64,000 nucleotides of DNA from an uncultured Gammaproteobacteria bacterium (GCA_943788815.1 CALSRS010000003.1:2588-66587); one strand, 5' to 3'. Shown: positions 29,481-48,803, counted from the stretch's first letter. Numbers and translations are program-made. The notes: generated by a model from the sequence alone, not told the origin.

Positions 29481-29529
29481 TTGAGCTAACGGAAAAATAA
29501 ATTCTGAAAATTTTGAATGAACAGTAATC

Positions 29530-30708: not shown

Positions 30709-30741
30709 TATTTCCAGTATAAACATCACGTATTTGTATTT

Positions 30742-31752
30742 ATGGATAGTGGAACGGATAAGATGCTTTTAAAAACAGAACTAGCAAATATTCTGGGTTA
30801 TCAGGGAGAGTTGGGTTACGAAGCTGAATACCCACTGCTAGAGGTCCCGGTCAGGGTGCGAAGTAATAATGTGCAGGTTATGAAAAATGCAGGTGTTGCA
30901 CTTGGTCACTGGCAGAACTGTAAAATGGATAAGAAAGAAAACTTTCCAGAATTGACTGTAGATATTATTTTGCAGGAAACAGATTCAGGGCCACCGCCTG
31001 ATGAGTATAAATTTACCCATAGGTACCGGGATGGTATATATCTAGCAAGTTGCGGCGATAATCTTTTGCTGGCCCTCAGGAATTCCGGAAAAGCAATTGC
31101 ATATGTGACTAATGATTTACTTGAAAATGTTGCAGCATTTAACTGGTTTGTTGTTGAGGCACTGTCATTATTCCTTGTTACCTATGGTCGGCGGGTACCG
31201 ATTCATGCTTCTGCCGTTACTAATGGAGACATTTCAATTGCGTTTATTGGTAATAGCGGAGCAGGAAAATCAAGTCTGGCTTATACGTTCCTGAAAAGTG
31301 GCTTCGGTTTGCTTGCTGAAGACGTAATTTATATGGGAATGGGAGACGATTTCAAGGTTTGGGGTAATTCAACAAGAATTCATCTCCTGCCCGATGCTAT
31401 AAACCTTTTTCCAGAATTGGAGGGCCGCATTCCCATTAAACGTCCAAATGGCAAGGTGAAAATTCAGATACCAATATCCGAGTTCAGCAATCCGGAACCG
31501 GTATTTGCAGTAGATAATATGTATATCTGTGTGATAGAACCAAACCATCTCAATAATAAAAGTTATATCAAACCTGTTTCTAGAGAATATGTGAGTAATT
31601 TCATCATGTCATCACTGGAGCCTGGTTTTAATCTAGAGTTTGAGAATTTAAAAGAATCTATGGATAAACTTTTGTGTTGTAATTTATATCTCCTGACGGC
31701 AGGCAAGAATCTGGCGGATATTCCGGATATGATGTTGGAATTAGATAATTAA
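30742..31752 (+). CDS. HPr-kinase-related (HprK C-terminal-domain-like) P-loop protein
   Basis: IHASAV...IAFIGNSGAGKSSLAYTF followed by LLAEDV matches the HprK-related kinase pattern. Confidence 0.55.
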   Translation: MDSGTDKMLLKTELANILGYQGELGYEAEYPLLEVPVRVRSNNVQVMKNAGVALGHWQNCKMDKKENFPELTVDIILQETDSGPPPDEYKFTHRYRDGIYLASCGDNLLLALRNSGKAIAYVTNDLLENVAAFNWFVVEALSLFLVTYGRRVPIHASAVTNGDISIAFIGNSGAGKSSLAYTFLKSGFGLLAEDVIYMGMGDDFKVWGNSTRIHLLPDAINLFPELEGRIPIKRPNGKVKIQIPISEFSNPEPVFAVDNMYICVIEPNHLNNKSYIKPVSREYVSNFIMSSLEPGFNLEFENLKESMDKLLCCNLYLLTAGKNLADIPDMMLELDN

Positions 31753-31796
31753 TTTAATCTGTGTAATACGGATAACCGATAAAATGGAGATTACAA

Positions 31797-33242: not shown

Positions 33243-33245
33243 TTC

Positions 33246-34652
33246 ATGATAGACCTGATCCTCACGCATGGATATTTTCTATGTGATGACGAAAAAGAGA
33301 AACAGATTATGAAACCCTATGCTCCCCTGGGTTTGATGTATATCTCTTCCTACCTTAAGCAAAATGGTTTCAAAGTGGAGCTGATTGACTCAACTTTTTT
33401 AGACATTGGTATCCTGAAGAAATATCTTTCAGAAAATCCGGGAGGAATTCTCGGTATTTATACCAATTTAATAACGCGTCATAACATAATTCGTATCATA
33501 CAATTCGCGAAACAAAATAATTTCAGTGTTGTTCTTGGTGGACCTGAGTCTGCAAACTATCCTGAAAATTATCTTAATAATGGCGCGGATATTGTTGTCA
33601 TTGGAGAGGGTGAACAAGCACTCTCAGAACTGATTCCTGCAATACGCGAGAAAGGTGTAAATAGATTAAGTTCTATTTCCGGTATCGTATTCAAGGATGA
33701 ATCCGGGAAGGTGATTAAAACACAGCCCCGTCAGGCAACACGGGATATTAGTAGTTATCCCTGGCCCGACAGGGAAGCAGTTGATGTTAATCGCTACTTA
33801 AATGTTTGGCGGGAGCATCATGGTGCAGGAAGTATTAGTATGATCACAGCTAGAGGTTGCCCTTACAGGTGTACATGGTGCTCGCATGCGGTATTTGGAT
33901 ATAGCCATAGAAGACGAAAGCCTGCTGAATGTGCAGATGAACTGGAATATATAATTGGCAAATTCGATCCTGACAAAATATGGTATGCCGATGATGTATT
34001 TACTATCAGTCACCCATGGTTGTTTGATTATGAGAAAGAATTAAAAAAGAGAAATATCAAAATTCCCTTCGAAACCATTTCCCGGGCAGACAGGCTGATG
34101 AATCCTGCTGCTCTGGATACATTGGCCGAGATGGGTTGTGAACGCATCTGGATAGGGTCTGAAAGTGGTAGCCAGAGAATCCTCGATGCAATGAAGCGGG
34201 ATGTCACCGTAGAACAGGTTCAATGGGCAACACGCGAGGTAAAGGAAAGAGGAATCAAGGTTGGCATGTTTCTAATGTGGGGGTACGGAGATGAAACGCT
34301 TGATGATATCGAAATGACGGTGGAGCATGTGAAACTTTCAAATCCGGATGTTTTTTTTACAACTGTGGCTTACCCTATAAAAAATACTCCATTTTTTGAT
34401 GAATATGCCGACAGTATATCAATGACAGGTGACTGGGATTCCAGCACTGATAGGGACTACAAATTGTCCACGCAGCGTGATCCAGAGTATTACAAGGCAG
34501 CAGATAAACTGTTATTCAATTCTGTAGAAGCATATCGCATCAACAATACAATGAACGATGATTTTAAAAATTACACACAGTGTGCCGATGAGGCCAGACA
34601 GTTTTTGATAAATTATGAACGAAAGCATGCCATCAACAAAACAGGCATTTGA
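33246..34652 (+). CDS. B12-binding-domain radical SAM enzyme (class B), paralogue
   Basis: The CxxxCxxC motif lies in TARGCPYRCTWCSHA. The protein is colinear with the preceding one (shared KPYAPLG, IWIG.ESGSQ..LDAMK.). The gap to the preceding gene is 3 nt. Confidence 0.8.
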   Translation: MIDLILTHGYFLCDDEKEKQIMKPYAPLGLMYISSYLKQNGFKVELIDSTFLDIGILKKYLSENPGGILGIYTNLITRHNIIRIIQFAKQNNFSVVLGGPESANYPENYLNNGADIVVIGEGEQALSELIPAIREKGVNRLSSISGIVFKDESGKVIKTQPRQATRDISSYPWPDREAVDVNRYLNVWREHHGAGSISMITARGCPYRCTWCSHAVFGYSHRRRKPAECADELEYIIGKFDPDKIWYADDVFTISHPWLFDYEKELKKRNIKIPFETISRADRLMNPAALDTLAEMGCERIWIGSESGSQRILDAMKRDVTVEQVQWATREVKERGIKVGMFLMWGYGDETLDDIEMTVEHVKLSNPDVFFTTVAYPIKNTPFFDEYADSISMTGDWDSSTDRDYKLSTQRDPEYYKAADKLLFNSVEAYRINNTMNDDFKNYTQCADEARQFLINYERKHAINKTGI

Positions 34653-35409
34653 CCAGCTTGCCCGTAATTACGATTCAATTTTCACCAATACGAATATTGG
34701 TAAGATGTTGCGGCAACGTACCCACGAACTCTTGGACGAGATTTTTCTCCCTGAAGACATCGTTCTGGTTCTGAATTGTGGAACTGGTGAAGATGTATTA
34801 TATCTTGCAAGCCGCGGTATTAAGGTGATTGCAACGGATAGTTCTGCTGAAATGATTAAATATGCGAGGATCAAAATTAAGGATGGTGGACTGGAAAATA
34901 GGGTGATATTCAAACAAATTGATTTTGATGAACTTGATGCATGTCTTGATCCTGACGAGCAATTTGATGGCGTAGTGTCAAACTTTGGTGGTCTTAACTG
35001 TTCCAGGGATTTGACATTACTGGCAGGCGAACTCTCAAAATATGTTCGAGTTGGCGGACGGCTTTACTTGTGTATTATGGGGCGGTTTGTTCCGTGGGAA
35101 TGGTTCTACCTGGGATTAAAGGGAAATTTTAGCAGGGTAATAGAGCGGATTTCAGGTAGCTGTATGTGGAGAGGACGGTACATAAAATATTATACTCCCG
35201 GTTCAGTTATTAAATCATTCTCTGATAATTTCCGTGCTGCTGATTCCAGAGGTCTGGGTTTTCTTCTTCCTCCCAGTTACGCTGGGTCATTAGTTTCAAG
35301 ATACCCTGATTTTTTTCAGTTGCTGAATAGATTAGAAAAGAAGATCGAATCCTGTTTCGCTGTCTCATGCTTCAGTGACCACTTCATAGTGACATTTTTA
35401 AAGAAGTGA
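34615..35409 (+). CDS. class I SAM-dependent methyltransferase
   Basis: Motif I is VLNCGTGEDVLYLASRGIKVIATD. The 5-prime end overlaps the preceding gene, so the exact start is uncertain. Confidence 0.7.
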   Translation: MNESMPSTKQAFDQLARNYDSIFTNTNIGKMLRQRTHELLDEIFLPEDIVLVLNCGTGEDVLYLASRGIKVIATDSSAEMIKYARIKIKDGGLENRVIFKQIDFDELDACLDPDEQFDGVVSNFGGLNCSRDLTLLAGELSKYVRVGGRLYLCIMGRFVPWEWFYLGLKGNFSRVIERISGSCMWRGRYIKYYTPGSVIKSFSDNFRAADSRGLGFLLPPSYAGSLVSRYPDFFQLLNRLEKKIESCFAVSCFSDHFIVTFLKK

Positions 35410-36329
35410 GAAGTACTGGGAATTGGCATGGCATGTGCCCTGTTTGCAAGTCTGATATTGGTTTGTTGTCATGGCCTGGAAATAAAATTGTATGCAGAAA
35501 TTGTTCGGATTCATTTCAGTCCATTGAAGGAATTTATCAACTCATTAGTACTGACAGACTTGCCAAATATGAAATGTTTCTGGATGAATATACCCGGATA
35601 CGGATTGCAGAAGGAAGAGGAGACCATGGTAATGACTATTACCAGAGATTGCCTGAACCTTCAGCATCCGATCCTCTCGCCTGGCAATGGAAAATCAGGA
35701 ATAAAAGTTTCAGGGCATTATTATCAGCCCTTTGTCTGAAATCTCAAAAGGGTAAGAAAATAATTGACCAGGGTGCCGGAGTTGGGTGGTTATGTAATCG
35801 CTTGGCAGAGATGGGACATCACCCGCTGGCCATTGATATCAATATGGACGATATGGATGGACTAAGCGCAGGTAAAAATTATGATAGAAGATGGCCAGTC
35901 ATACAGGCCGAGTTTGATAATTTACCTCTGGCAGATGACCAAGCTGATGTTGTTATATTCAATGCCAGCTTACATTACAGTACGGATTATTATAATACAT
36001 TGAGAGAAGCGCTACGCGTACTTGCCAATGATGGTAAATTAGTAATCATTGATTCACCCATTTACAGGAAACCAGGGAGTGGAATTCAGATGAAATCTCA
36101 GCGCCATGATTTTTTTGAAAAAAAGTATGGATTTAGATCAGATAGTATTAATAGTATCGAATTTCTGACCTGGGATATGATTAAAGATCTTGGGAACAGT
36201 TTGGGGATAACCTGGAATGTAATCAGGCCATGGTATGGATTGGGATGGGCAATTCGTCCGTTAAAGGCCACTATCAAACGTACAAGAGAACCATCAACTT
36301 TTGCAGTGTTAATTGCGAAACGGAGTTAA
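35406..36329 (+). CDS. SAM-dependent methyltransferase with an N-terminal Cys4 zinc-ribbon
   Basis: CPVCKS...CRNC is followed by motif I IIDQGAGVGWL. The GTG start overlaps the previous stop (GTGA). Confidence 0.65.
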   Translation: MRSTGNWHGMCPVCKSDIGLLSWPGNKIVCRNCSDSFQSIEGIYQLISTDRLAKYEMFLDEYTRIRIAEGRGDHGNDYYQRLPEPSASDPLAWQWKIRNKSFRALLSALCLKSQKGKKIIDQGAGVGWLCNRLAEMGHHPLAIDINMDDMDGLSAGKNYDRRWPVIQAEFDNLPLADDQADVVIFNASLHYSTDYYNTLREALRVLANDGKLVIIDSPIYRKPGSGIQMKSQRHDFFEKKYGFRSDSINSIEFLTWDMIKDLGNSLGITWNVIRPWYGLGWAIRPLKATIKRTREPSTFAVLIAKRS

Positions 36330-36336
36330 CTGAATT

Positions 36337-37335
36337 TTGAGCAATATGTTTACATCTGAACAAGCAATAGAACGACTGCCTGTTGTGGTTTTAATGCTTA
36401 AGACCGACTGTAATTGTCGTTGTGCTATGTGCGATATATGGAAAGATACAAGCAAGGCCTCATTACCCTTGCAAACGATTGAAAATATATCTCGACAAAT
36501 GAAATCATTGAGAACCAGGGAGATAGTCTTGAGTGGTGGTGAGCCACTGATGCATAAGGAAATCGAAAAAATTTGCAGGTTGTTATATTCAAAGAATTTT
36601 AAGATTACCTTAATCACAACGGGTCTATTACTAAAACATCATGCCAGCTGGATAAGTGAATGCATCAAACAAATTTACGTAAGCCTGGATGGACCTGAAG
36701 ATGTTCATAATTCAATTAGAAATATTCCTGGCGCATTTGGGAAAATTACAAGAGGAATAGAAACGGTACGAAATTTCAGAAAGAATATTGGTATTGGAGG
36801 ACGTTGTACTGTCCACAAGCAAAATTTTCAACATATAGTTTCAACGGTAGCGGCAGCCAAGGAAGCAGGAATGGACAGTATCAGTTTTCTTGCTGCAGAT
36901 ATTCAACAGGATAACTTTGGTAGGACCAGCGATTGGAACGAGAACGGAATTTCACTTTCTGCAGAAGAAATAGCAGAATTGGATGATATCCTCGAGCAAT
37001 TATATATTAATAATAAAGTAGATTTTGAATCTGGCTTTATCGTTGAAAGCAGGGATAAACTGCAAAAGAAACTTCTAGATTATTATCGTGCTTTGGCTGA
37101 GGGGAAAGAGTTCCCGGAAGTAGATTGTAATGCGCCATGGGTATCAAGCGTGATTGAAACTGATGGCCGTATCAGACCCTGTTTTTTTCATAAACCTTAT
37201 GATGAGAACATCAATGATGGCACAATTACTGATATTTTAAATTCCTCTTCAGCAAAGGATTGGCGAAAAAACCTGGATGTAAAAACCGATGCAATTTGCA
37301 AATCTTGTGTTTGTTCTCTTTCCTACAGAGAATAG
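36337..37335 (+). CDS. radical SAM enzyme with a C-terminal SPASM/twitch-like Cys cluster
   Basis: The CxxxCxxC motif lies in DCNCRCAMCDIW, and the GGEPL motif is present. The C-terminal Cys pattern is CNAPW...PCFF...CKSCVC. The true start is probably the ATG at 36346. Confidence 0.75.
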   Translation: MSNMFTSEQAIERLPVVVLMLKTDCNCRCAMCDIWKDTSKASLPLQTIENISRQMKSLRTREIVLSGGEPLMHKEIEKICRLLYSKNFKITLITTGLLLKHHASWISECIKQIYVSLDGPEDVHNSIRNIPGAFGKITRGIETVRNFRKNIGIGGRCTVHKQNFQHIVSTVAAAKEAGMDSISFLAADIQQDNFGRTSDWNENGISLSAEEIAELDDILEQLYINNKVDFESGFIVESRDKLQKKLLDYYRALAEGKEFPEVDCNAPWVSSVIETDGRIRPCFFHKPYDENINDGTITDILNSSSAKDWRKNLDVKTDAICKSCVCSLSYRE

Positions 37336-37936
37336 ATTGTCATTTACATAACATATCCGAATTCACCGGCATGACCTGACAGAACGTCCGAAATAAGTTG
37401 AAGTTCTTTTGACAGGTCGGAAAATCTCGTCTGGGGGGTAATTCAATTTCATATGTCTCATGATTTTGATATGACGAATAAAATGTTCCCTCTTATATCG
37501 ATAATTGAAGTATTCTCGAATATGATTTTTCGGGATGTCCATTCAAATATTCTTTCTTTGGATAATGTAGTGAGTATTGAATGTCCGACCAGTAATTTTG
37601 TCAATAATATTGTGCCACTAGGGTGTGACCGTTAGAAAAAAAAGGATTTTCCGCTAATTCAAATAAATCGCATGATTCGGATCCAGAATTTTACATTACT
37701 TTTCGTATCTAGACCGTGCCTGGATCACTGGGTAAAGGAAAACCGTTTAAATGTTGACAATGCTACTTTTTGATACGTGAATTAATATCTTGTAGTTTTG
37801 AATTAAATTTAATTAGCAGTTCTTATTATGTATATTGATATATCAAATAACAGAAAATTATAATGAAACTGGTATCTATCAATCATTTATTAATTAATTA
37901 ATTTTATAATAATTAAATGTATCGGAATCATATAAA

Positions 37937-39076
37937 TTGAATAAATCATTGAATATAGTATTTATCTCACCTGGAGGCGTGGACAGGAGTGGTCAATACA
38001 AGGTAATACCGCATATATTATGGATGCTTGAGAAGTTGACAGTTAAACATAAGGTTACTGTTATAAGCCTTTATCAGTATGAACAAGCTTGCGAATACAC
38101 ATTGTGTGGAGCCAGGATTATTTCACCTGGAAAGATCAGGCAGGACTGGAATAATTTTCAGGATCCGCAAAGTGCCCTCAAGGAAATGTATGAGAAAACT
38201 CTGGATATAGTAAGCTCGGAAGGGACGCCGGATATACTCCATGGGTTTTGGGGATTTCATGCCGGTTGGCTTGCATCAAGGATTGCATTGTCAATGAAAA
38301 TACCGTCAGTTGTGAGCCTGATGGGAGCAGAATTCGTTGCATTTCCTGAGATAAAATATGGCGGTCAATTCCATACTAACCAGAAAATGATATTGAATGA
38401 TACTTTGAAGCAGGCAACTTCGTTTACTGTTGCCAGCCATCACATGGAAGTCCATGCCAGTGAGTTTGGTGTGTCGGCCGAATATATACCATTCGGTGTA
38501 CACGGTTCATGTTTTAAACCCAACAAATCTCCTGCACAGCCCCCGTGGAAACTGTTACATGTGGCCAGTATCAATCGAATTAAGGACCAGGCGACTTTAT
38601 TAAAGGCATTCAGGAGGGTGGTAGATCGTATACCAGCTGTACACCTGGATATAGTTGGGGAAGATACACTGAATGGGGAGTTGCAAAATTTAACAGATGA
38701 ATTGGACATGGAAAATCATGTTACTTTTCATGGTTATCTTCCGAATAATGAGGTGCGTATATTTTTTCAAAATGCAAATATCTATTTAGTATCATCCTTG
38801 AATGAAACCGGGCCAATTTCAATGTTGGAAGCTGCGGCCTGTCGTGTGCCGACAGTTGGAACTGAAGTAGGATATGTTGCCGATTGGACAGATAAGCGGG
38901 CCCTTGCGGCAGAGATAGGTAATAGTCAAGATCTTGCTGAAAAAATAATTTTTCTGCTTAAAAATAATCAAAAAAGAAAAGAATTGGGGGAGGCTGCTTA
39001 CAACTGGGTTAGAGAATATGACTCTAGCTGGACAACGAACAAGTTACTGGAAACATACAAATCACTTATGTACTAA
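37937..39076 (+). CDS. GT4-family glycosyltransferase
   Basis: It has a TTG start and the C-terminal signature ETGPISMLEAAACRVPTVGTEVG. Length is 379 aa. Confidence 0.7.
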   Translation: MNKSLNIVFISPGGVDRSGQYKVIPHILWMLEKLTVKHKVTVISLYQYEQACEYTLCGARIISPGKIRQDWNNFQDPQSALKEMYEKTLDIVSSEGTPDILHGFWGFHAGWLASRIALSMKIPSVVSLMGAEFVAFPEIKYGGQFHTNQKMILNDTLKQATSFTVASHHMEVHASEFGVSAEYIPFGVHGSCFKPNKSPAQPPWKLLHVASINRIKDQATLLKAFRRVVDRIPAVHLDIVGEDTLNGELQNLTDELDMENHVTFHGYLPNNEVRIFFQNANIYLVSSLNETGPISMLEAAACRVPTVGTEVGYVADWTDKRALAAEIGNSQDLAEKIIFLLKNNQKRKELGEAAYNWVREYDSSWTTNKLLETYKSLMY

Positions 39077-39207
39077 CATAATGAAAATCAAAATCGTTCT
39101 TGTTCTAATAGAACCACAACCAAAATTGTCTTAATTAGTTTAGTTTGTAGCTATAATTAAATTTAAATGTGAGAATTGAATATTTTTCCTGTAAATATAA
39201 TTAAAAA

Positions 39208-40134
39208 ATGAAAAAAATTATCCAAACATCAGAGATTTTCTTGTTGATGATATTTGTTATAACCATAACATTTTCGAATATGCTCCATGCACAGGAAAAA
39301 AATTATATTGGAACGCAAGTCTGTTCCACTTGCCATAATGATCTCTCCAATCACTGGTCGCACACGCTTCATGCAAAAATATTCCTTAATAATCCAAGGA
39401 ATGAAATTGAAGCTCGAGGTTGTGAGTCTTGTCATGGCCCAGGTTCTCAACATTTGGCTGACCCCACTGTGTCCGAGAGTATTATCCGATTTACATCAAA
39501 TTCAAATAGCTCCGTTGGAGTCCAGAACCAGGCCTGTCTGCAGTGTCATACTGGTGGTGATCGTATGCACTGGATGAGTTCTGTCCATGAAAGTAACGAC
39601 ATCGCCTGCGCAGATTGTCACAATCCTATGGCCAATTATTCCACAGTGAATTTATTGTCAAAAAATAATGTTAATGAAACATGTTTTACTTGCCATAAAG
39701 AGCAACGCAGCCAGTTTAACCGTCGGTCGCATATGCCACTAAATGAGGGAAAAATATCCTGCACTAATTGTCATAATCCACATGGTAGTATTTCAGACAG
39801 TCTCTTGATTGCCGATACTGTCAATCAGACCTGTTTTCAATGCCATGCAGAAAAACGCGGACCATTTCTGTTCGAACATGCTCCTGTGACGGACAGTTGT
39901 GTTAATTGTCATGAACCCCATGGTTCAAACCATGAAAAATTATTGCTTACGGCCCGACCAATGTTATGTCAGCAATGTCATACCTCTATTGGGCATATGA
40001 ATGATCTTTTTACGCGTGGGAATCTTGCAACGGGCAGCCGTCCAGATGCACGATTAATAGGAAGAAGCTGTCAGAATTGCCACTCCCAGATACATGGTTC
40101 AAATCATCCTGGCGGAGCTAAATTTCAAAGATAG
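39208..40134 (+). CDS. periplasmic decaheme c-type cytochrome, MtrA/DmsE/PioA/MtoA family
   Basis: It has a signal peptide and exactly ten CxxCH motifs (CSTCH, CESCH, CLQCH, CADCH, CFTCH, CTNCH, CFQCH, CVNCH, CQQCH, CQNCH). The C-terminal CQNCHSQIHGSNHPGG is typical of the family. Length is 308 aa. Confidence 0.9.
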   Translation: MKKIIQTSEIFLLMIFVITITFSNMLHAQEKNYIGTQVCSTCHNDLSNHWSHTLHAKIFLNNPRNEIEARGCESCHGPGSQHLADPTVSESIIRFTSNSNSSVGVQNQACLQCHTGGDRMHWMSSVHESNDIACADCHNPMANYSTVNLLSKNNVNETCFTCHKEQRSQFNRRSHMPLNEGKISCTNCHNPHGSISDSLLIADTVNQTCFQCHAEKRGPFLFEHAPVTDSCVNCHEPHGSNHEKLLLTARPMLCQQCHTSIGHMNDLFTRGNLATGSRPDARLIGRSCQNCHSQIHGSNHPGGAKFQR

Positions 40135-40161
40135 TCATTTTATAATATTGTTACTAAAGCG

Positions 40162-42651
40162 ATGAAAATAAGTTCACTGAAACAGGTTTGCTCTATAGGG
40201 TTTATTATGACCGTTGTATTTTTGGCTGAAAACGTACGAGCAGCTGAAATTTCACAAAATACAAACCAGCTGAATTCTAAAGCAATATCTGAAGGTTTTG
40301 CTATTTCCAAAGAAGACTTTAACAGATTCCAGGACAGGTTAAGATCTCCTAGTGGATTTCTCTATCCTGATGTTTTACAACCTGCACCACTAAAACCTAT
40401 TGCTAATGGTGATTGGTCTTACTCACTCTCTATGGATGCCGGCTATTTGCTAGTTGCTGGAGAAGAGAATTCTTCCCTGTTCGCAGAATATGGTGACTGG
40501 AATGATGGATTTTTACTTCGACAATTTTCAGGAGTGATTGAAAATTCTCAAACAGCGCAATACATGAAATTAAGTGGAGGTAGTATTGGCAGGAATGATC
40601 AGTACCTGAATTTTTCTTCGGGTAAATATGGCAAATATAATCTGTCAGTCGCATTTGACTCTGTCCCCCATGTTTTTTCAAATGACGCAAAAGTCCTTTG
40701 GGAGGGTGTTGGTAGGAATGTCCTGACATTGCCAGGTGGCCTGACCCCGGGAAATAGCACTGCAGCTGAAGTGATTACTGCTTTTCAACTTATCCAGGGC
40801 TCTGAAATAAAACTGGATAGAGACAAACTCAGCGTAAATTTTGATATTGACTACCTGCCTACATTGAATTTCCATGCAAAAGGTTCAGTAGAATGGAGAG
40901 AGGGCGGCAGACCCTTTGGTGGTGGATTTACATACCCGGGTTCGGGGCAGGTGACGGAAGTTATCGAGCCTGTTGATTATACAACTTATGATATTAATCT
41001 GGGATTTTCTTACAGTAATACACACAGGCAACTGAATTTTTCATATTCAGGCTCGTTTTTTGAAAACAGCTACAGTGCATTGACATGGGAAAATCCTGGG
41101 CTTACCCCGTTTCCAGCATTCGCCCCTAGTCGAGGACGCTATGCGCTTGCGCCAGATAATGAATATCATCATTTTCGCATTGACTTTGCGACATTATTCC
41201 CATTCTGGAATAGCAGGTTTACACTGGTTTCGTCGTATTCCATATCCCGTCAGAATGATCTTCTTGTCCCACCAACTGTGAGCACAGGTATCATAAACAG
41301 TGGCCCCGACACAATTGATCTTGACCAGTGGAATTCCGTGGCAGCACTTTCAAGTGAGAGAGCTGGTGCTGAAGTACGAGACCTCATGGTTCATTCCAGG
41401 ATGATTCTGAATCCTGTAAACAAACTAAGATTAAACGCTGAATTAAAAATTCACGACAAGGACAACAGAACTGACTACACGGCATTAAACCCCTTTACTG
41501 GACAGTATGGTTATCTTGTTATGGACGGTGGTCTGGATGCTTTGGCAGCTTCACTTTCAGGAATCTATAATCCTTTGCGGCGAGGCAGTCGGGTGCGTTT
41601 TAAAAACATTCCGTTTGAGAAGGATATTTTTCTCATAGCGACTGGTGTGGATTATAGATTTACAGGAAAATTAAAAATGGACCTGGATTATACCAGGGAA
41701 CAGCAGGATTTTAGCCACAGGGAAGTTGATAAATTGGTTGAAGACAGGATTGACATTAAGTTGGTTTATCGTAGCCGACAATTTGGCACACTTAGAACGG
41801 CATATGAATTTAGTAGCAGGGACAGTGATAATTATAACTTTAACCCCTATGAACAATTTTATACTTCTTCATTACCGGACCATATACCGCGATTCACAGA
41901 AGGGAATGACCCGCATACCTTGGCAAATTTAAGAAAGTATGACCTTGCAAGCAGGGACAGACATGCAATTACAGGTAAATTTATTTCCATTATTGCTGAT
42001 AATATTGATCTTACCTTGACTGGGAAATATTCAAATGAAGACTTTGATGCTGAGTACGGTCTGAAAGACAAGAATTCTTTTTCTGCCAATGTGGATCTGA
42101 ATTTTTATCTTGGGTTGAATAAAAGCATCTACGCCTTTTATTCTTTTCAATCGGCCAAGCGATCATTTAGCAATATAAACGATGCTGGGGCAGTTTCTGC
42201 GGTTTCTGAGGCAGGAGGCCCTAGATTTCCCCTTGATCGCGCTTGGCACGAAAGTACAAAAGAAACAAATAATAATTTCGGGGCAGGATTTAACTATGCA
42301 ATTAACAGCATTACGTTTAATGCTAGCTATACGTATGCTAAATCAAGATCCAGGTTTCATTATGATTATAACTCAACAGCTGCATTCAATAATACTTTTA
42401 CTGAGCAGGAAGTCGGAAGTGGATTCCCGGATCAGGTTTATAGTAATCATCAACTGGAAGCGGAAATTAACTGGTCAGTTAATGAAAAAACCAGCCTGAA
42501 TTTTTTATACAAATATGAAGCAGAGAATATAAACGACTTCCACTATCAGGGTTTGGTAGATTCTGTCATTAGCGATTCAATTTTTTTGCTTACTGTTCCT
42601 GATAACTTCAAAAATCATGTTATTGGGATAACAATTGAATATAATTTTTAA
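40162..42651 (+). CDS. MtrB/PioB-family decaheme-associated outer-membrane beta-barrel
   Basis: The 829-aa protein has a signal peptide and alternating beta-strand-like sequence, and it ends in an aromatic residue (EYNF). Its N-terminal region FAEYGDWNDGF...GKYGKYNLSVAFDSVPH resembles the MtrB/PioB family. It lies immediately downstream of the decaheme gene. Confidence 0.7.
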   Translation: MKISSLKQVCSIGFIMTVVFLAENVRAAEISQNTNQLNSKAISEGFAISKEDFNRFQDRLRSPSGFLYPDVLQPAPLKPIANGDWSYSLSMDAGYLLVAGEENSSLFAEYGDWNDGFLLRQFSGVIENSQTAQYMKLSGGSIGRNDQYLNFSSGKYGKYNLSVAFDSVPHVFSNDAKVLWEGVGRNVLTLPGGLTPGNSTAAEVITAFQLIQGSEIKLDRDKLSVNFDIDYLPTLNFHAKGSVEWREGGRPFGGGFTYPGSGQVTEVIEPVDYTTYDINLGFSYSNTHRQLNFSYSGSFFENSYSALTWENPGLTPFPAFAPSRGRYALAPDNEYHHFRIDFATLFPFWNSRFTLVSSYSISRQNDLLVPPTVSTGIINSGPDTIDLDQWNSVAALSSERAGAEVRDLMVHSRMILNPVNKLRLNAELKIHDKDNRTDYTALNPFTGQYGYLVMDGGLDALAASLSGIYNPLRRGSRVRFKNIPFEKDIFLIATGVDYRFTGKLKMDLDYTREQQDFSHREVDKLVEDRIDIKLVYRSRQFGTLRTAYEFSSRDSDNYNFNPYEQFYTSSLPDHIPRFTEGNDPHTLANLRKYDLASRDRHAITGKFISIIADNIDLTLTGKYSNEDFDAEYGLKDKNSFSANVDLNFYLGLNKSIYAFYSFQSAKRSFSNINDAGAVSAVSEAGGPRFPLDRAWHESTKETNNNFGAGFNYAINSITFNASYTYAKSRSRFHYDYNSTAAFNNTFTEQEVGSGFPDQVYSNHQLEAEINWSVNEKTSLNFLYKYEAENINDFHYQGLVDSVISDSIFLLTVPDNFKNHVIGITIEYNF

Positions 42652-42682
42652 CTAAAATATTAATATAAAATTAATCTAATTC

Positions 42683-43600
42683 ATGATGGAGAGAAATTAT
42701 TTATCTATTATTGTTATTTGCTTTAATATGAGACGTGAAGCGCCGAGAACAATTTATTCATTGTCGAAAAAATTTCAAAAAAGAATACGTCTTGAAGATT
42801 ATGAGATAATCGTTATAGATAATGATTCCACTGAACCTCTGGAAAAAAATGAAATAGAAAATATCGGGTCAAATATTTCATATTATTTTTATAACTCAGG
42901 TTCTCAATCACCAGTAGGTGCCATAAATTATGGTGTTGAAAAAGCCAAAGGTGAATACATTGGTATATTAATTGATGGTGCTCGCATTATGAGTCCAATG
43001 ATTCTTAATTGGGCGTTATATGCTTTGCAGACAATTAACAATCCATTTATTTCAACATTAAGTTGGCATTTGGGACATGAGCAACAATTTATTTCAGTCC
43101 CAAAGGGATATACGAAACAGCATGAAGATAAATTATTGGAAGAAATAGACTGGAAGAATAACGGCTATAATTTATTTTCTATTTCATCTTTTGCAGGATC
43201 ATCGAAACCTGGTTTTTTTCAATCTGTATCAGAAAGTAACGCAATATTTCTTGATAAATCCCTTTACTATGAGATTGGCGGTTATGACATCTGTTTTGAT
43301 TTGCCTGGTGGTGGATATTGTAATTTAGATTTTTATAAGAGAGCTTGTGAGTATCCTGATGTAACTCATGTCATATTGCTGGGTGAAGGGACATTTCATC
43401 AGTATCATGGAGGAATTACGACAAGCAGTAGAGATAAATATGTAATTAATTTACTTAAAGAGTATGAATTACAGTATTCTCAAATTAGAAAAGAATCTTT
43501 TGTAAGTCCAAAAAGCAAGCCTGTATATATAGGCATTATTCCAGACAGTATTCTGCCATTTATACAGGACTCGATCACCAAGGCTACGGACAAGCATTAA
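42683..43600 (+). CDS. GT2-family glycosyltransferase
   Basis: LSIIVICFN and YEIIVIDNDS form the GT-A N-terminal signature. Length is 305 aa. Confidence 0.7.
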   Translation: MMERNYLSIIVICFNMRREAPRTIYSLSKKFQKRIRLEDYEIIVIDNDSTEPLEKNEIENIGSNISYYFYNSGSQSPVGAINYGVEKAKGEYIGILIDGARIMSPMILNWALYALQTINNPFISTLSWHLGHEQQFISVPKGYTKQHEDKLLEEIDWKNNGYNLFSISSFAGSSKPGFFQSVSESNAIFLDKSLYYEIGGYDICFDLPGGGYCNLDFYKRACEYPDVTHVILLGEGTFHQYHGGITTSSRDKYVINLLKEYELQYSQIRKESFVSPKSKPVYIGIIPDSILPFIQDSITKATDKH

Positions 43601-43638
43601 ACTGTAAATTAGTGTAATTATTAATATCAGTTCAAATT

Positions 43639-44880
43639 ATGGATAACTTCAAAGTTAAAAAAATATCACCGGCTGGAGAATTAATTTTATTGAGCAGTAG
43701 AAATACTATAGATTCTGCCAGTAAGAGAAAAATTAAGGAATTGTTAGGAGAGAATTTGGATTGGAATTTTATTAAGGATCTGGCAATTCGAAATAAAATT
43801 ATTCATCTTTTGTGTAATACGCTAAAAAATAATTTTCAAAGTGAAATTGATGAAGAAGTTTATACACAGATCTCTGATGAAGTAAGCGTTCATGTATCGA
43901 GCAATAAAGATGCCCTTAACCTATTATTTGATGTAAACCAATTATTAAGTTCAGAAGATATTCCCGTAATTATTTTTAAAGGTCTAGTTTTCTCTTATCT
44001 AGTTTATGATTCCAGCACTTACCGTTGTCAAGGGGATATAGATTTACTTGTGAGACCAGAAGATTTTCTAAAAGCCAGGGATATACTTATACGAAATGGT
44101 TTTATAAGTACATATTTTGGTCATGCAGAAGTATCAACTGTACAAGCCCAATTAGGTAGAACTGACAAACGTGCCAGTGTCGATTTGCACTATGGATTGA
44201 CACCTCAGTATCAGCAGACAAATATGAATGAGGCAATGAATGGGAGTAAATTTGATCGTCATTTGAGTAATACACATGATAAAAGTAAAACAAGGTGGTT
44301 TTGCTATCTGGAAACAGCCCCGGTATGGGAACGGGCAATTGAAATTAAGTTGGAAGACGAAACAATAAAAACGCTTTCTCCAGAAGATACACTGCTAGTA
44401 GCAGTTATACACGGTTTAAAGGAAAACTGGAGAACATTAAGTAGGATAAGTGATATTGCAGCAATTATTACTAAATATAAAAATTTAAACTGGGCGTTAA
44501 TTCAAGAAGCGGTGGCTAATTTAAACTACAGGAAAAAATTTTTTCTAACACTAAGATTAGCGCGTGAAATTTATGATATTAATTTGCCGGATGAGATTTT
44601 GAGATGTACTTATTTACATGGTTCGGAATACTTAGCAAAACTTATAATTTACCGTTTCACGATTAAAAATTATTTAGCTGACTTTGAAGAATCTCGGCGA
44701 ATAGCAGCTGCAATGACAATGGATAATCCGGTGGATTTTTTCAGGTATTTGATATACGTATATAACACGCCAAACGGACCATTTAATGAGCAGATTACAA
44801 AAAATAACTTTCCAGGTTTTATGCTCATACTTACACGACATTACATAAATTCAATTTATTTGAGGCTTACTGGAAAATAA
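43639..44880 (+). CDS. uncharacterised nucleotidyltransferase-family protein (NTP_transf_5-like)
   Basis: The motif CQGDIDLLVRPEDFLKARDIL and a length of 413 aa match this family by recall. Confidence 0.55.
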   Translation: MDNFKVKKISPAGELILLSSRNTIDSASKRKIKELLGENLDWNFIKDLAIRNKIIHLLCNTLKNNFQSEIDEEVYTQISDEVSVHVSSNKDALNLLFDVNQLLSSEDIPVIIFKGLVFSYLVYDSSTYRCQGDIDLLVRPEDFLKARDILIRNGFISTYFGHAEVSTVQAQLGRTDKRASVDLHYGLTPQYQQTNMNEAMNGSKFDRHLSNTHDKSKTRWFCYLETAPVWERAIEIKLEDETIKTLSPEDTLLVAVIHGLKENWRTLSRISDIAAIITKYKNLNWALIQEAVANLNYRKKFFLTLRLAREIYDINLPDEILRCTYLHGSEYLAKLIIYRFTIKNYLADFEESRRIAAAMTMDNPVDFFRYLIYVYNTPNGPFNEQITKNNFPGFMLILTRHYINSIYLRLTGK

Positions 44881-45027: not shown

Positions 45028-47448
45028 ATGATTAGAATTAAATTAGCCTGGTCAATGACCATTCTTTTGTTTTTTAGTATGTTTTGTCAGGCTCAGGACA
45101 ACTCCAGTAATGACGCTACCCGGTTTTCCGAGGTAGTAAATCAGTATTGTGTTACCTGCCATAATGATGCTTTGCGTACTGCAGGCTTTTCTCTACAGCA
45201 CGCAGATCTCAATAATATGGGAGAGCATGCGGAAACCTGGGAAAAGGTTTTGCGTAAGATCAAGGTCAGGACCATGCCGCCATCAGGTATGCCCAGGCCG
45301 GACATAGATACCTATGATGCCTTTGCCAACTACCTCACCAACAGTCTTGATAGCCATGCTGCAAATAATCCTCGGCCTGGTGTCGCAGCTATCCGACGTT
45401 TGAATCGTACCGAGTACTTCAATGCCATTCGTGATCTTCTGGCGGTTGAGATTAATGACAGTACTATCTTGCCTGCCGATGACACCATGTTTGGATTTGA
45501 TAATGTGGGTGCGGTATTGACTTTATCCCCAGCGTTGACGGAACAGTATATTACTGCTGCACGTAAGATTCGTTACCAGGCCCTGGGCCATCCCGATATG
45601 CCAGCAGAATTTTTTACCTACAACACCCCCAGGTATTTAATGCAGGAAGACTGGGTAAGTGAAGACCTGCCCTTTGGATCACGCGGTGGAATGGTCATAC
45701 AGCATCACTTCCCAATGGACGGGGAATATATCCTACAGATCCGGTTACAGAAAAACTCCAGAGACTACATACGTGGTTTGGTTCATATTCCTCACGATAT
45801 TGATGTGCGTCTGGATGATAAACAGATTGCCAGATTAACGGTTGGTGGAGAAAAATTTGGAAATTCCTCCGGGATGTATTCTTCCAGCGCGCAGGGACAT
45901 CCGGATCAGGAACAATATGAACGTAACAGCGATCAATCACTGGAGGTGCGATTTAATGCCAAGGCAGGCACGAGAAAAATCTCCGTTGCCTTTCTGAAAA
46001 AACTGGCCTTGCCCGAAGAGCCTTCATACAGTCGGATGTCCATTATTGATTATGCCCAGCTCAAGGCCGGCGTCCCTGGAATCGGTGCAGTCAGGATAGG
46101 TGGCCCTTATAACGCCACAGTTTCAAAAGAATCTGTCACCCGTAAAAAAATATACGTTTGTGAGCCTCGAAATGACAGGGACACTAAATGCGCTGAAGAA
46201 ATTATTTCTAATCTGGGTAGGCTGGCTTACCGTCGTACACTAACGGATACCGAGCTGGATGGTCTTATGGAGTTTTATCAACAAGGTAGACGGAACGGCG
46301 GGTTTGATGAGGGTATAGGTCTCGCCATGGAACGAATCCTTGCGGGACCGAAATTCCTGTTCGTGACTGAGCAGGCGCCCAAAAATGTAAAATCAGATGA
46401 GGTCTTTGCCGTATCTGATCTGGAACTGGCTACCCGTCTGGCATTGTTTCTATGGAGCTCAGTACCAGACGATGAGTTGCTGTTAATTGCTGAGTCTGGA
46501 CAGCTTCGTAATCAAGCGGTTCTCAAACAGCAGATTCAACGCATGTTGGCAGATACTCGTTCGCGGACACTGGTGAATAATTTTGCTGCACAGTGGCTCA
46601 ATCTCGGTCGCTTGAATGCGTCAGCACCAAACGGTGAAATTTTTCCTTACTTTGACGATAATCTCAGGCAGGCATTTCGAGAAGAAACCGAGTTGTTTTT
46701 TGAGTATGTCTTCCGTAACGACAGGCCGCTACTGGAATTGCTCGATGCAGATTACACGTTTGTTAATGAGCGTCTGGCCAAACATTACGGGATCCCAGAT
46801 GTATTTGGTAATCATTTTCGTATGGTAAAACTTGGTGATGGAACACGTGGTGGATTATTGGGACAAGGTAGCATCCTGACAGTGACTTCCTATGGAAACC
46901 GCACCGCGCCGACCATACGTGGTAAATGGATCCTGGAAAATATTCTCGGTGCGCCACCACCACCGCCACCCGCCGATGTGCCGGGACTACGAGATAAAAA
47001 CGATGAAGGTAAGGTCTTAAATATGCGTCAGCAAATGGAACAACACCGGGAGAATCCGGTCTGCGCCAGTTGCCATAAGGTCATGGACCCCCTGGGGTTT
47101 GCCCTGGAAAATTATGATGCCATAGGTAGATGGCGTACAGTAGATGCGGCATCAAGCGAAGCCATTGATGCCAGTGGTGCGTTGCCTGACGGCACACCAT
47201 TTGAAGGTCTGAGTGGGTTGCGCCAGGTCTTATTGGATAAAAGGCAGTATGACTTTAGTATGACGGTCATAGAAAAGATGCTGACCTATGCATTGGGTCG
47301 TGGCATAGAACATTCAGATGCACCAGCTATGCGTGCTATTATGAGGCAATCAGAATCCAACAACTACCGGTTATCTTCTATAATTATAGCAGTAATTGAG
47401 AGCTTACCGTTTCAGATGAGGAGGGCACCTAACCATGATGATCTTTAA
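45028..47448 (+). CDS. DUF1592/DUF1595/DUF1588/DUF1585-type multidomain protein with an N-terminal heme-binding motif
   Basis: It has a signal peptide and a CVTCH motif. It also shows LGRLAYRR..TD.EL, LATRLALFLWSSVPDDELL, NFAAQWLNL and CASCHKVMDPLGFALENYDAIGRWR. Confidence 0.8.
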   Translation: MIRIKLAWSMTILLFFSMFCQAQDNSSNDATRFSEVVNQYCVTCHNDALRTAGFSLQHADLNNMGEHAETWEKVLRKIKVRTMPPSGMPRPDIDTYDAFANYLTNSLDSHAANNPRPGVAAIRRLNRTEYFNAIRDLLAVEINDSTILPADDTMFGFDNVGAVLTLSPALTEQYITAARKIRYQALGHPDMPAEFFTYNTPRYLMQEDWVSEDLPFGSRGGMVIQHHFPMDGEYILQIRLQKNSRDYIRGLVHIPHDIDVRLDDKQIARLTVGGEKFGNSSGMYSSSAQGHPDQEQYERNSDQSLEVRFNAKAGTRKISVAFLKKLALPEEPSYSRMSIIDYAQLKAGVPGIGAVRIGGPYNATVSKESVTRKKIYVCEPRNDRDTKCAEEIISNLGRLAYRRTLTDTELDGLMEFYQQGRRNGGFDEGIGLAMERILAGPKFLFVTEQAPKNVKSDEVFAVSDLELATRLALFLWSSVPDDELLLIAESGQLRNQAVLKQQIQRMLADTRSRTLVNNFAAQWLNLGRLNASAPNGEIFPYFDDNLRQAFREETELFFEYVFRNDRPLLELLDADYTFVNERLAKHYGIPDVFGNHFRMVKLGDGTRGGLLGQGSILTVTSYGNRTAPTIRGKWILENILGAPPPPPPADVPGLRDKNDEGKVLNMRQQMEQHRENPVCASCHKVMDPLGFALENYDAIGRWRTVDAASSEAIDASGALPDGTPFEGLSGLRQVLLDKRQYDFSMTVIEKMLTYALGRGIEHSDAPAMRAIMRQSESNNYRLSSIIIAVIESLPFQMRRAPNHDDL

Positions 47449-48778: not shown

Positions 48779-48803
48779 TTAAACAGATTGTAAGGAGTTT
48801 GAA

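Follow-up and report, generated by a model that had tools for sequence, protein, structure and literature searches.

The gene pair at positions 39208-42651 of the window, the whole 64-kb stretch of DNA analyzed here, was identified by profile searches and structure modelling as a genuine two-component trans-outer-membrane conduit of the MtrAB/PioAB/MtoAB family. Such a "wire in a barrel" is an already known kind of system, and the unusual point is that this conduit lineage is repeatedly kept beside a cassette of B12-radical-SAM and methyltransferase genes. The explanation that we favor, and consider likely as a whole, is that the conduit probably passes electrons inward and is deployed with a surface product made by the cassette.

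A preliminary description of this DNA had placed the barrel gene 27 nt behind the cytochrome gene and the pair between two glycosyltransferase genes on the same strand, and the ORF coordinates agreed on both points:

37937-39076, + strand, GT4 glycosyltransferase, upstream of MtrA (Pfam and NCBIfam matches)
39208-40134, + strand, MtrA/DmsE-family decaheme c-type cytochrome, predicted periplasmic, 308 aa (CxxCH count, TIGR03508, 6R2Q alignment)
40162-42651, + strand, MtrB/PioB-family outer-membrane barrel, 829 aa (TIGR03509, PF11854, AlphaFold2 model, Foldseek)
42683-43600, + strand, GT2 glycosyltransferase, separating MtrB from the PF14907 gene (Pfam match)

The 308-aa protein contains exactly the ten CxxCH motifs previously reported for it, which take up all 20 of its cysteines, and every other ORF in the window has at most two such motifs. 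In the proposed profile search it scored 265.8 bits against TIGR03508 (curated cut-off 192.2; model positions 1-257 of 258 covered), and its residues 35-308 aligned with chain A of 6R2Q (MtrA, E = 2e-67) over a span that includes all ten heme motifs. Ten further histidines (52, 55, 82, 127, 175, 192, 224, 238, 263, and 296) are at least 95% conserved among 119 homologues, a pattern consistent with bis-His ligation of all ten hemes. Export to the periplasm is predicted from a Sec-type signal peptide with a predicted cleavage site after LHA.

The 829-aa protein also has a signal peptide and ends in ...EYNF. When compared with the MtrB/PioB models, it exceeded both cut-offs, scoring 267.5 bits with TIGR03509 (curated cut-off 240.05) and 354.4 bits with PF11854 (cut-off 23; model positions 4-635 of 635 covered). 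Since both proteins exceed curated family cut-offs, their family membership, as judged from these profiles, is far beyond chance. The AlphaFold2 model of the barrel (pLDDT 80.3, pTM 0.76) has 26 long strands as in MtrB, and a Foldseek search with it returned 6r2q_B (MtrB) as the top and only close match (E = 6e-40, target-normalized TM 0.85), with the next match at a TM of 0.42. Modelled alone, the barrel is thus predicted to have the MtrB fold and to be big enough for a decaheme protein. Its single cysteine, residue 10, lies within the signal peptide, and it has no CxxC motif. The MtrB gene is paired with a decaheme MtrA-type gene in nearly all related loci fetched, and the few exceptions are truncated by contig ends.

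PioB is about 810 aa long, and the barrel had been assigned to its size range. In agreement with this, the 30 closest barrels were all 829-872 aa long and none had an N-terminal CxxC, whereas the motif was present in 12 of 12 Shewanella-type barrels of about 700 aa. Shewanella MtrB itself shares 22% identity with the barrel (E about 1e-11). No MtrC gene was seen beside any related locus whose gene calls were read. In 15 alphaproteobacterial loci, MtrA is preceded by a cytochrome c2-type gene (matching 1FJ0, E = 3e-27). The flanks of 41 Xanthomonadales-type loci contain a cytochrome c4-type gene (matching 6Q2U, E = 2.5e-37); in L006, whose gene calls were read, a c4-type gene directly follows MtrB. 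Because the barrel belongs to a lineage of about 830-870 aa without CxxC, and because c2 or c4 genes lie beside the relatives' pairs, we read the pair as a conduit of the PioAB/MtoAB class, a class defined here by barrel length, CxxC absence, and the relatives' neighbors.

In the mechanism that we propose, the Sec-exported cytochrome, with its predicted ten c-type hemes, would form a wire threading through the 26-strand MtrB-fold barrel. Heme 10 of the MtrA-like protein would itself be the surface-exposed redox site, because the long barrel lacks CxxC, no MtrC lies beside the loci, and c2 or c4 genes are adjacent in the relatives. The relatives' pairs adjoin genes for high-potential periplasmic carriers (c2 in the Alphaproteobacteria, c4 in the Xanthomonadales), and the periplasmic and inner-membrane partners in this genome would be encoded outside the window. 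The conduit probably serves electron uptake: as has been suggested for PioAB and MtoAB, electrons most likely enter from Fe(II) or reduced humic-type donors outside the cell and pass to an aerobic or microaerobic respiratory chain; a role in Fe(II) oxidation is what we infer from this. Outward or bidirectional flow through the pair may also occur. The direction of flow is not readable from sequence, and MtoAB and PioAB form no function-specific clade in the MtrA and MtrB trees of Baker et al. (PMC8805035).

The gene content around the pair bears on this question. The CxxCH scan of the 64 kb found no MtrC/OmcA-type outer decaheme gene, nor was one present among the Pfam-annotated neighbors, and the same scan found no MtoD-like class-I monoheme gene and no NapC/NirT-type tetraheme (CymA) gene in the window, in line with what had been reported. 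The reported lack of a HiPIP-like gene agreed with a weaker test, a pattern scan that detected neither a Tat-signal four-Cys small ORF nor an in-frame HiPIP-like Cys pattern in the window. The CVTCH of a DUF1592 protein, said to be the sole other heme motif within 5 kb, was located at nt 45148, but the same protein has a second in-frame CxxCH (CASCH at nt 47062). A CNSCH at 43360 is out of frame relative to the GT2 gene. The description of the host as an aromatic degrader with the box pathway was borne out by box-type genes at 5619-11332, comprising an AMP-binding CoA ligase, BoxB-like and BoxC-like proteins, and a regulator with HTH and shikimate-kinase domains.

An alternative is that electrons leave the cell without MtrC, either to chelated Fe(III), humics, flavins, or iodate, or in an Fe(III) reduction for iron acquisition that would supply the Fe-S-rich and heme-rich proteins encoded nearby. 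The neighboring genes do encode at least three Fe-S enzymes, the cytochrome aligns closely with the MtrA of a metal reducer, and MtrAB-type cores are not divided into oxidizing and reducing clades (PMC8805035). We nevertheless regard outward flow as unlikely, given the absence of MtrC/OmcA and CymA/NapC-type genes from the 64 kb, the c2 or c4 genes rather than quinol dehydrogenases that adjoin the relatives' pairs, and the O2-dependent box pathway of the host. The barrel also lacks the Shewanella-type N-terminal CxxC, whose C42 S. oneidensis needs in order to reduce Fe(III) (PMC12175506).

Among known systems, inward flow finds its counterparts in two-component conduits that lack MtrC and have been linked to Fe(II) oxidation, namely PioAB of Rhodopseudomonas palustris TIE-1 and MtoAB of Sideroxydans lithotrophicus ES-1 (PMC5566968, PMC10654088). 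As in these, a decaheme MtrA-type gene directly precedes the gene for a long MtrB/PioB-family barrel of the ~800+ aa size class, an outer cytochrome gene is absent, and the hosts are not classical metal reducers. The window pair differs in having no adjacent mtoD, cymA, or pioC, and its cytochrome, at only 308 aa, has no PioA-like N-terminal extension. Furthermore, the descriptions of the pio and mto clusters covered by this analysis do not mention the B12-radical-SAM, methyltransferase, and PF14907 neighbors that are conserved in the window lineage. Both parts share their fold with MtrAB of the Shewanella baltica MtrCAB complex (PDB 6R2Q), but the window barrel is only ~18-22% identical to that MtrB and ~130 aa longer, with the extra residues in loops and the N-terminus, and it lacks both the N-terminal CxxC and an MtrC gene in the window. 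The NCBIfam model that names the cytochrome, TIGR03508, is that of the DmsE family, which recalls DmsEF of the Shewanella extracellular DMSO reductase DmsEFAB; however, the surroundings of the window pair contain no gene for the molybdopterin or Fe-S reductase proteins DmsA and DmsB.

The pair lies inside a run of 13 co-directional genes, whose other named members are cytoplasmic enzymes. The glycosyltransferase genes at its sides are common only to a few close relatives: GT4 is shared by the window and L008 alone (59% identity), and GT2 has counterparts at that position in L008 (70% identity) and in L090 (58% identity). What recurs across lineages is instead the block of B12-radical-SAM and methyltransferase genes at 29530-37335, together with the PF14907 gene at 43639-44880:

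29530-30708, + strand, amidohydrolase-superfamily enzyme, deaminase- or deacetylase-like (Pfam Amidohydro_1)
30742-31752, + strand, HPr-kinase-like protein, weak match (PF07475, E = 3e-5, below gathering score)
31797-33242, + strand, B12-binding radical SAM enzyme 1, orthogroup C (Pfam B12-binding and Radical_SAM)
33246-34652, + strand, B12-binding radical SAM enzyme 2, orthogroup B (Pfam)
34615-35409, + strand, class I SAM methyltransferase MT_1 (Pfam)
35406-36329, + strand, second class I SAM methyltransferase, MT_2 (Pfam)
36337-37335, + strand, radical SAM/SPASM-domain enzyme (Pfam Radical_SAM, Fer4_12, SPASM)
43639-44880, + strand, PF14907 (NTP_transf_5) nucleotidyltransferase-like protein, cytoplasmic (Pfam, E = 3e-42)

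No cassette protein reached an NCBIfam equivalog cut-off, and none has a signal peptide, whereas MtrA and MtrB both do. The amidohydrolase gave weak NCBIfam matches to chlorohydrolase, aminofutalosine-deaminase, and TRZ/ATZ models, and no PDB relative was found for it by sequence; the HPr-kinase-like protein gave further weak matches to HprK_rel_A and HprK_rel_B. For MT_1, the best NCBIfam match was the corrinoid-protein-associated methyltransferase CpaM (56 bits, below cut-off).

Across related loci, the recurrent set consists of two to three B12-binding radical SAM enzymes, SAM methyltransferases, and a SPASM radical SAM enzyme, to which many loci add the amidohydrolase, the HPr-kinase-like protein, and the PF14907 nucleotidyltransferase. 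All seven loci of the window's own gammaproteobacterial MAG clade have the radical-SAM/methyltransferase set no more than 10 kb from MtrAB, as do most alphaproteobacterial relatives (including the cultured Nitrospirillum amazonense and N. iridis, Azospirillum sp. B4, and Rhizomicrobium MAGs) and one Rhodanobacteraceae subclade. The most widely co-conserved gene is MT_1, which, like the amidohydrolase gene, accompanies MtrAB in gammaproteobacterial, alphaproteobacterial, and Rhodanobacteraceae loci. The HPr-kinase-like gene is kept in L008, L007, L001, L002, L091, L011, L014/L087, and L024. A PF14907 homologue comes next after MtrB, either immediately or behind GT2, in the window, L008, L007, L001, L090, and L091; in L087 it stands at the end of the cassette. 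The order B12-B12-MT-MT-SPASM is kept in the window, L008, L090, and L091, and with a single methyltransferase gene in L088.

The main alternative for this linkage is hitch-hiking, in which a genuine conduit would operate without reference to the cassette, and variable islands would simply be where cell-envelope genes gather. Other phyla have cassettes with no MtrAB (L088, L089), and most MtrAB loci of Rhodanobacter, Frateuria, and Dyella, like most of the long-barrel family, have no cassette; the link between the two is therefore facultative. In the Rhodanobacteraceae, cassette and MtrAB stand ~5 kb apart, with unrelated genes (ECF sigma factor, subtilase, FolE2) in between. Signs of a variable island are the deviant GC content of the 2-kb block at 42001-44000 around GT2 (0.32 vs ~0.41 for the window) and the transposase that adjoins the cassette in L090. 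In addition, when the B12-radical-SAM orthogroups were assigned from a neighbor-joining tree, the cassettes that lack MtrAB fell between the gamma and the alpha forms in the subtrees of all three, so the histories of cassette and conduit may differ.

Against hitch-hiking, three separate proteobacterial lineages keep the radical-SAM/methyltransferase core within 10 kb of MtrAB despite rearrangement, with differing gene orders and orientations, and the linkage is complete in the window's own clade. Among 83 non-redundant MtrB loci, 25 (0.50 Mb) carried 50 B12-radical-SAM genes, and the other 58 (1.0 Mb of flanks) carried none. The reverse test gave the same association, as the closest homologues of B12-radical-SAM enzyme 1 (63-67% identity) were all on contigs that also carry MtrAB. 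We therefore hold independent operation of the two to be a substantial but less than even prospect, and favor the view that the cell probably uses conduit and surface product jointly, for instance in a matrix that would handle Fe at the cell surface under low oxygen.

As to the product, the surroundings had been described as a surface-glycan island. Three glycosyltransferases, two sulfotransferases, and one epimerase fit that description, but export and polymerization genes do not complete it: no flippase, polymerase, Wza-type, or ABC exporter gene was found anywhere in the 64-kb window, so the label should be read as interpretive. Elsewhere, GT4 and GT2 genes directly follow the B12 pair in a Thermoanaerobaculia locus, and in alphaproteobacterial loci the set has Poly_export, Wzi, Bac_transf, and ABC genes at its sides. 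The cassette is most likely an independent, widespread module that would build a methylated cell-surface glycoconjugate.

B12-radical-SAM and SPASM enzymes are also common RiPP maturases, and the neighbors could alternatively form a peptide-modification cluster, with MtrAB associated with a secreted modified peptide, such as a metal-binding one. The B12-radical-SAM enzymes would then act as C-methyltransferases, the SPASM protein as a maturase, and the HPr-kinase homologue, nucleotidyltransferase, and sulfotransferases would correspond to the enzymes that tailor lasso peptides with phosphoryl or glycosyl groups; a kinase, nucleotidyltransferase, and sulfotransferase trio has been described in that role (PMC8498205). 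Weak NCBIfam matches to ApyD, rSAM_ocin_1, and PapB, together with the missing glycan exporter, would suit this scheme. However, lasso cyclase and leader-peptidase genes were absent among the Pfam-annotated neighbors, no small ORF conserved among the seven gamma-lineage loci was found, and the more than 100 homologues of B12-radical-SAM enzyme 1 at 52-57% identity in several phyla are more easily reconciled with a conserved substrate (a small molecule or a glycan) than with variable peptides. With glycosyltransferase or polysaccharide-export genes flanking the cassette in two phyla (Pseudomonadota and the Thermoanaerobaculia MAG), a peptide product appears improbable.

A glycoconjugate product invites comparison with bacteriohopanetetrol cyclitol-ether synthesis, which proceeds through HpnI (GT2), HpnK (deacetylase), and HpnJ (B12-radical-SAM). 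The cassette, with its GT2, amidohydrolase-superfamily, and B12-radical-SAM enzymes, resembles this logic and, by analogy, might act on an aminosugar. The best NCBIfam match of B12-radical-SAM enzyme 1 is indeed HpnJ, but at 122 bits against a cut-off of 578 it is not an HpnJ orthologue; likewise, the cassette amidohydrolase falls outside the HpnK (YdjC) family, and the window has no hopanoid genes. Upstream of the pair, a near-consensus sigma-70 promoter-like site, identified by pattern match only, lies at 37835-37864, 5' of the GT4 start.

The porin-cytochrome pair is encoded by two adjacent genes of the window:

39208-40134, + strand, MtrA-type decahaem cytochrome (308 aa)
40162-42651, + strand, MtrB/PioB-type barrel (829 aa), 27 nt after the cytochrome ORF

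Both ORFs and their spacing agree with the preliminary description, as do the exactly ten CxxCH motifs of the cytochrome, which hold all 20 of its Cys residues, and the same-strand GT4 (37937-39076) and GT2 (42683-43600) genes on either side of the pair. In line with its statement that no outer decahaem gene lies nearby, a six-frame scan of the 64 kb found more than two CxxCH motifs in no other ORF. The N-terminus of the cytochrome, MKKIIQTSEIFLLMIFVITITFSNMLHA/QE, reads as a Sec-type signal; the barrel has a signal peptide and an outer-membrane-protein-like C-terminus (...EYNF). The cytochrome scored 265.8 bits against TIGR03508 (DmsE-family decahaem; cut-off 192.2), and the barrel scored 267.5 bits against TIGR03509 (MtrB/PioB; cut-off 240.05) and 354 bits against PF11854. 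Among solved structures, cytochrome residues 35-308 matched MtrA of the Shewanella baltica Mtr complex (6R2Q chain A, E = 2e-67). In an alignment of 119 homologues, ten proximal and ten further His residues reached at least 95% conservation, the full complement of ligands for ten bis-His haems.

The sequence match of the barrel to 6R2Q chain B was moderate (E = 3e-18). An AlphaFold2 model built from 29 homologues was confident (mean pLDDT 80.3, pTM 0.76) and contained 26 long strands. In a Foldseek search of the PDB, MtrB was the sole close fold (E = 6e-40, target-normalised TM 0.85), followed by 22-strand TonB-dependent receptors with a TM of about 0.42. Since the barrel matched both MtrB/PioB models and its predicted fold is that of MtrB rather than of a barrel too small to sheathe a decahaem, the two genes encode a genuine member of the MtrAB family of porin-cytochrome conduits. 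This identity is secure, and the predicted product is a complete MtrAB-type wire-in-barrel, Sec-exported by its signal peptides and with its haem ligands intact.

MtrAB, PioAB, and MtoAB represent the best-understood electron route across the Gram-negative outer membrane. Earlier work recorded MtrC-less homologues from Nitrospirillum, Azospirillum, and many other Proteobacteria (PMC10654088, PMC5566968, PMC8805035), and as an MtrC-less conduit the window pair is one more member of a well-known group. A word-indexed search with the barrel returned 43 relatives, the first 30 of which were 829-872 aa long (one a fragment) with 27-49% identity; they were followed by Shewanella-type MtrB proteins of about 700 aa, with only about 22% identity and E values of about 1e-11. 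With phmmer, run exhaustively over 1.84 billion cluster representatives, 1619 clusters passed E ≤ 1e-3 and 203 passed E ≤ 1e-30. The long-barrel group is therefore real, though not large. An N-terminal CxxC was present in 12/12 short barrels and in 0/30 long ones; in S. oneidensis MtrB, C42 of this motif is needed for Fe(III) reduction (PMC12175506).

The direction of electron flow was considered from the neighbourhoods of 86 related loci. In 15 alphaproteobacterial loci, MtrA comes after a cytochrome c2-type gene, which lies about 1-2 kb upstream of the barrel match in L003, L005, L011, L012, L018-L020, L022, L025-L027, and L033; the best PDB match of the c2-type product was R. palustris c2 (E = 3e-27). 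A dihaem cytochrome c4-type gene occurs in the flanks of 41 Xanthomonadales-type loci, namely L006 and 40 others. In L006, for which the gene calls were read, it lies directly after MtrB (12633-13322), and the protein matched PDB entries at E = 2.5e-37, with A. ferrooxidans c4 among the matches. Because c2 and c4 are high-potential periplasmic carriers of a type that feeds terminal oxidases, uptake of the PioAB/MtoAB kind fits better than a CymA-driven outward model, and we infer that uptake is favoured over outward flow. Neither gene type is present in the window's own clade. The CxxCH scan revealed no c-type carrier gene in the 64-kb window, and a HiPIP/Tat-signal pattern scan gave out-of-frame chance matches only. 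According to Baker et al. (PMC8805035), MtoAB and PioAB form no function-specific clade. The best 120 MtrA matches were all unnamed or generically named, with none named as PioA, MtoA, or DmsE, and the best 80 loci of the genome scan included none from Rhodopseudomonas or Sideroxydans.

The pair belongs to a run of thirteen + strand genes (28515-44880) with mostly tiny gaps. The first five encode an epimerase, an amidohydrolase, an HPr-kinase-like (HprK-like) protein, and two B12-binding radical SAM enzymes (B12-rSAM), and the other eight two class I SAM methyltransferases, a SPASM radical SAM enzyme, GT4, MtrA, MtrB, GT2, and a PF14907 nucleotidyltransferase. The gap before MtrA is 131 nt. 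The gap before GT4 (37336-37936) is 601 nt of AT-rich, non-coding sequence with no ORF conserved elsewhere, compared with only 78 nt at the same junction in L008, a syntenic MAG. In a promoter and terminator scan of 36.3-45.1 kb, counts were at or below the shuffled expectation; the best promoter-like pattern match was a near-consensus -35/-10 pair before GT4 (37835-37864), and the operon structure is consequently not informed beyond this pair. Upstream of the run are another GT4 gene and two sulfotransferase-family genes forming the left flank of the island:

22328-23095, + strand, sulfotransferase-family gene
27573-28358, - strand, sulfotransferase-family gene

The radical SAM and methyltransferase genes, often with the amidohydrolase, HprK-like, and PF14907 genes, are referred to here as the cassette; that of the related locus L001 also includes a sulfotransferase. 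Signal peptides were absent from all cassette proteins. The 64-kb window encodes no flippase, polymerase, Wza-type, or ABC exporter, and an Rfam scan of it found one tRNA only and no cobalamin or other riboswitch. The GC content is 0.32 at 42001-44000, covering GT2 and the start of PF14907, versus about 0.41 for the window and 0.40-0.41 for MtrAB, and this low-GC stretch may have a history different from that of the conduit.

The pair had been framed as embedded in a glycosyltransferase operon within a surface-glycan island. The neighbourhood is indeed conserved, but glycosyltransferases are not its constant members: they are absent from L001, L002, and L007, three loci with barrels of 46-50% identity that share the window's B12-rSAM enzymes, methyltransferases, and HprK-like protein. 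The PF14907 gene is present in two of these three (L001 and L007) and stands just 3' of MtrB, directly or after GT2, in L090, L091, L007, L001, L008, and the window. L008, with a barrel of 64% identity, matches the window in gene-for-gene synteny between the amidohydrolase and an AI-2E transporter. In the alphaproteobacterial loci (barrel identity 33-38%), cytochrome c2-MtrA-MtrB is followed by methyltransferase, DUF218, and amidohydrolase genes, and further on by methyltransferases, usually a SPASM enzyme, and three B12-rSAM enzymes. Carriers include, among cultured bacteria, Nitrospirillum amazonense and N. iridis together with Azospirillum sp. B4, whose short contig stops ahead of any B12-rSAM gene; Rhodospirillales MAGs are further carriers. 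For both MAG loci with gene calls (L003 and L005), the set ends at a Poly_export/SLBB protein of about 1000 aa. A Rhizomicrobium MAG has Wzi/Poly_export/Bac_transf/ABC genes on one side of the pair and, on the other, a cassette whose last genes are HprK-like and PF14907. In one Rhodanobacteraceae subclade, B12-rSAM, amidohydrolase, and methyltransferase genes lie 5-9 kb upstream of the pair, separated from it by ECF sigma factor, subtilase, and FolE2 genes.

In total, 50 B12-rSAM genes were found in 25 of 83 non-redundant loci (0.50 Mb), and none in the other 58 (1.0 Mb). In a neighbour-joining tree of the barrels, the linked loci comprised the window's entire clade, most of the alphaproteobacterial sister clade, and one nested Rhodanobacteraceae subclade. 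The cassette-less loci inside these clades were mostly truncated contigs, in addition to five alphaproteobacterial loci with full flanks (L013, L015, L018, L020, and L029). Among the closest homologues of the first B12-rSAM enzyme (63-67% identity), all contigs long enough to judge had MtrB within 10 kb; L090 and L091 were identified without reference to the barrel search. The proximity of cassette and MtrAB is thus lineage-specific and recurrent. Full-text searches found no literature joining MtrB or decahaem terms with radical SAM, and this recurrent linkage of one long-barrel lineage with a B12-rSAM/methyltransferase cassette is apparently undescribed. As a side observation at L090 8957-9913 and 20179-21452, a DDE transposase gene stands next to the cassette and MtrB was called as two fragments of 176 and >421 aa, pointing either to decay of this copy or to an assembly or frameshift error.

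The cassette also occurs apart from the conduit. At 52-57% identity, the first B12-rSAM enzyme has more than 100 database clusters in several phyla, including Acidobacteriota, Thermoanaerobaculia, Chloroflexota, Armatimonadota, and Entotheonella. Many of these clusters carry the automatic label "anaerobic Mg-protoporphyrin IX monomethyl ester cyclase", probably a mis-annotation. Two of these loci were inspected, and both kept the order B12-B12(-MT-SPASM), where MT is a methyltransferase, and lacked MtrAB:

L088 (8.8-Mb genome), 9310-21494, cassette without MtrAB
L089 (Thermoanaerobaculia MAG), 10001-15210, cassette without MtrAB, GT4 and GT2 genes directly after

The tree built from every B12-rSAM gene of the loci resolved three orthogroups, each with gammaproteobacterial, alphaproteobacterial, and MtrAB-less members, indicating that the cassette is an old, self-standing module. 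Its proximity to the conduit may be genomic hitch-hiking, a reading that we regard as a serious candidate, albeit short of probable. Co-regulation alone could also explain the proximity, since radical SAM chemistry is a low-oxygen function, as is extracellular electron transfer.

No cassette protein reached an NCBIfam equivalog cut-off. The best names (HpnJ, BchE, PhpK, CpaM, and DVU_1556) were all sub-threshold, so that no function could be transferred, and a PDB sequence search gave no useful match for the amidohydrolase, PF14907, or HprK-like proteins. The HpnI/K/J route leads to an aminocyclitol head group, and the window's GT2, amidohydrolase, and B12-rSAM set resembles its logic by analogy only. 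Judged from gene content, a surface glycoconjugate is the favoured product, because glycosyltransferase or polysaccharide-export genes flank the cassette in Pseudomonadota and in the Thermoanaerobaculia MAG and because the cassette enzymes are highly conserved across phyla. A RiPP-type system is suggested by the HPr-kinase, nucleotidyltransferase, and sulfotransferase trio, which is known from lasso-peptide tailoring (PMC8498205), but cyclase and peptidase genes are absent. Moreover, an all-against-all comparison of 20-120-aa ORFs outside long ORFs in seven gamma-lineage loci revealed no case of a small conserved ORF. A 46-aa ORF of L002 was rejected as a precursor, being low-complexity and unique.

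Without an MtrC gene, the distal haem of the MtrA-type cytochrome would itself be the surface redox site. Fe(II) or reduced organic compounds would most likely be the electron donors, and c-type carriers with genes elsewhere in the genome the recipients, while the adjoining cassette would supply a modified surface polymer used jointly with the conduit. In iron-oxidising bacteria, exopolymers keep Fe(III) minerals off the cell, as described in the stalk and sheath literature. The conduit and the B12-rSAM/methyltransferase/glycosyltransferase cassette might form one system, in which a methylated, possibly phosphorylated or sulfated surface glycoconjugate or metabolite is the extracellular partner, although we consider this rather unlikely. 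Such a product could be a redox-active or metal-binding layer replacing MtrC at the barrel mouth, or a matrix needed for Fe(II) oxidation without encrustation. If true, porin-cytochrome conduits would have a new kind of outer component that is not a cytochrome, found in cultured Nitrospirillum and uncultured Gammaproteobacteria. If the link is accidental, the finding shrinks to another MtoAB/PioAB-type homologue from an uncultured gammaproteobacterium.

The window context is conserved, and it bears on how MtrC-less conduits make external contact and why they are present in so many ordinary aerobic heterotrophs. A conduit repeatedly beside one defined biosynthetic cassette is a concrete, testable lead, with versions of the locus in the cultured and genetically approachable N. 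amazonense and N. iridis. The cassette, with three orthologous B12-rSAM enzymes, methyltransferases, and SPASM, is also interesting in its own right.

Directly downstream of the cluster lie three genes for exported proteins:

45028-50363, + strand, DUF1592, DUF1552, and ankyrin-repeat exported proteins

The DUF1592-family protein has a Sec signal and an N-terminal cytochrome c domain. Its previously described haem motif is present, but there are two in frame (nt 45148 and nt 47062) rather than one. The DUF1552 (HXXSHH) protein has a twin-arginine signal and the ankyrin-repeat protein a signal peptide. All three share 81-92% identity with their L008 counterparts, far above the 64% of MtrB, and none occurs at the other MtrAB loci. 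The DUF1592 and DUF1552 proteins were rejected as periplasmic partners because their synteny is confined to L008.

Elsewhere the window has ordinary chromosomal content, with pcnB, folK, panBC, a box cluster, queA, tgt, and yajC. At 54702-57949 (+ strand), an MNIO/DUF692-family enzyme of the MbnB/TglH type, with sub-cut-off best NCBIfam scores to ApyH (85 bits) and BufB (74 bits), precedes two ORFs of 305 and 473 aa without Pfam or NCBIfam matches. This looks like a RiPP-type maturation cluster from its gene content; the 320 nt upstream of the MNIO/DUF692 gene show no precursor-like ORF. A 493-aa ORF at 20651-22132 (+ strand) likewise has no Pfam or NCBIfam match, and tandem genes for DcaP-like outer-membrane porins of 447 and 472 aa lie at 14754-17535 (- strand).
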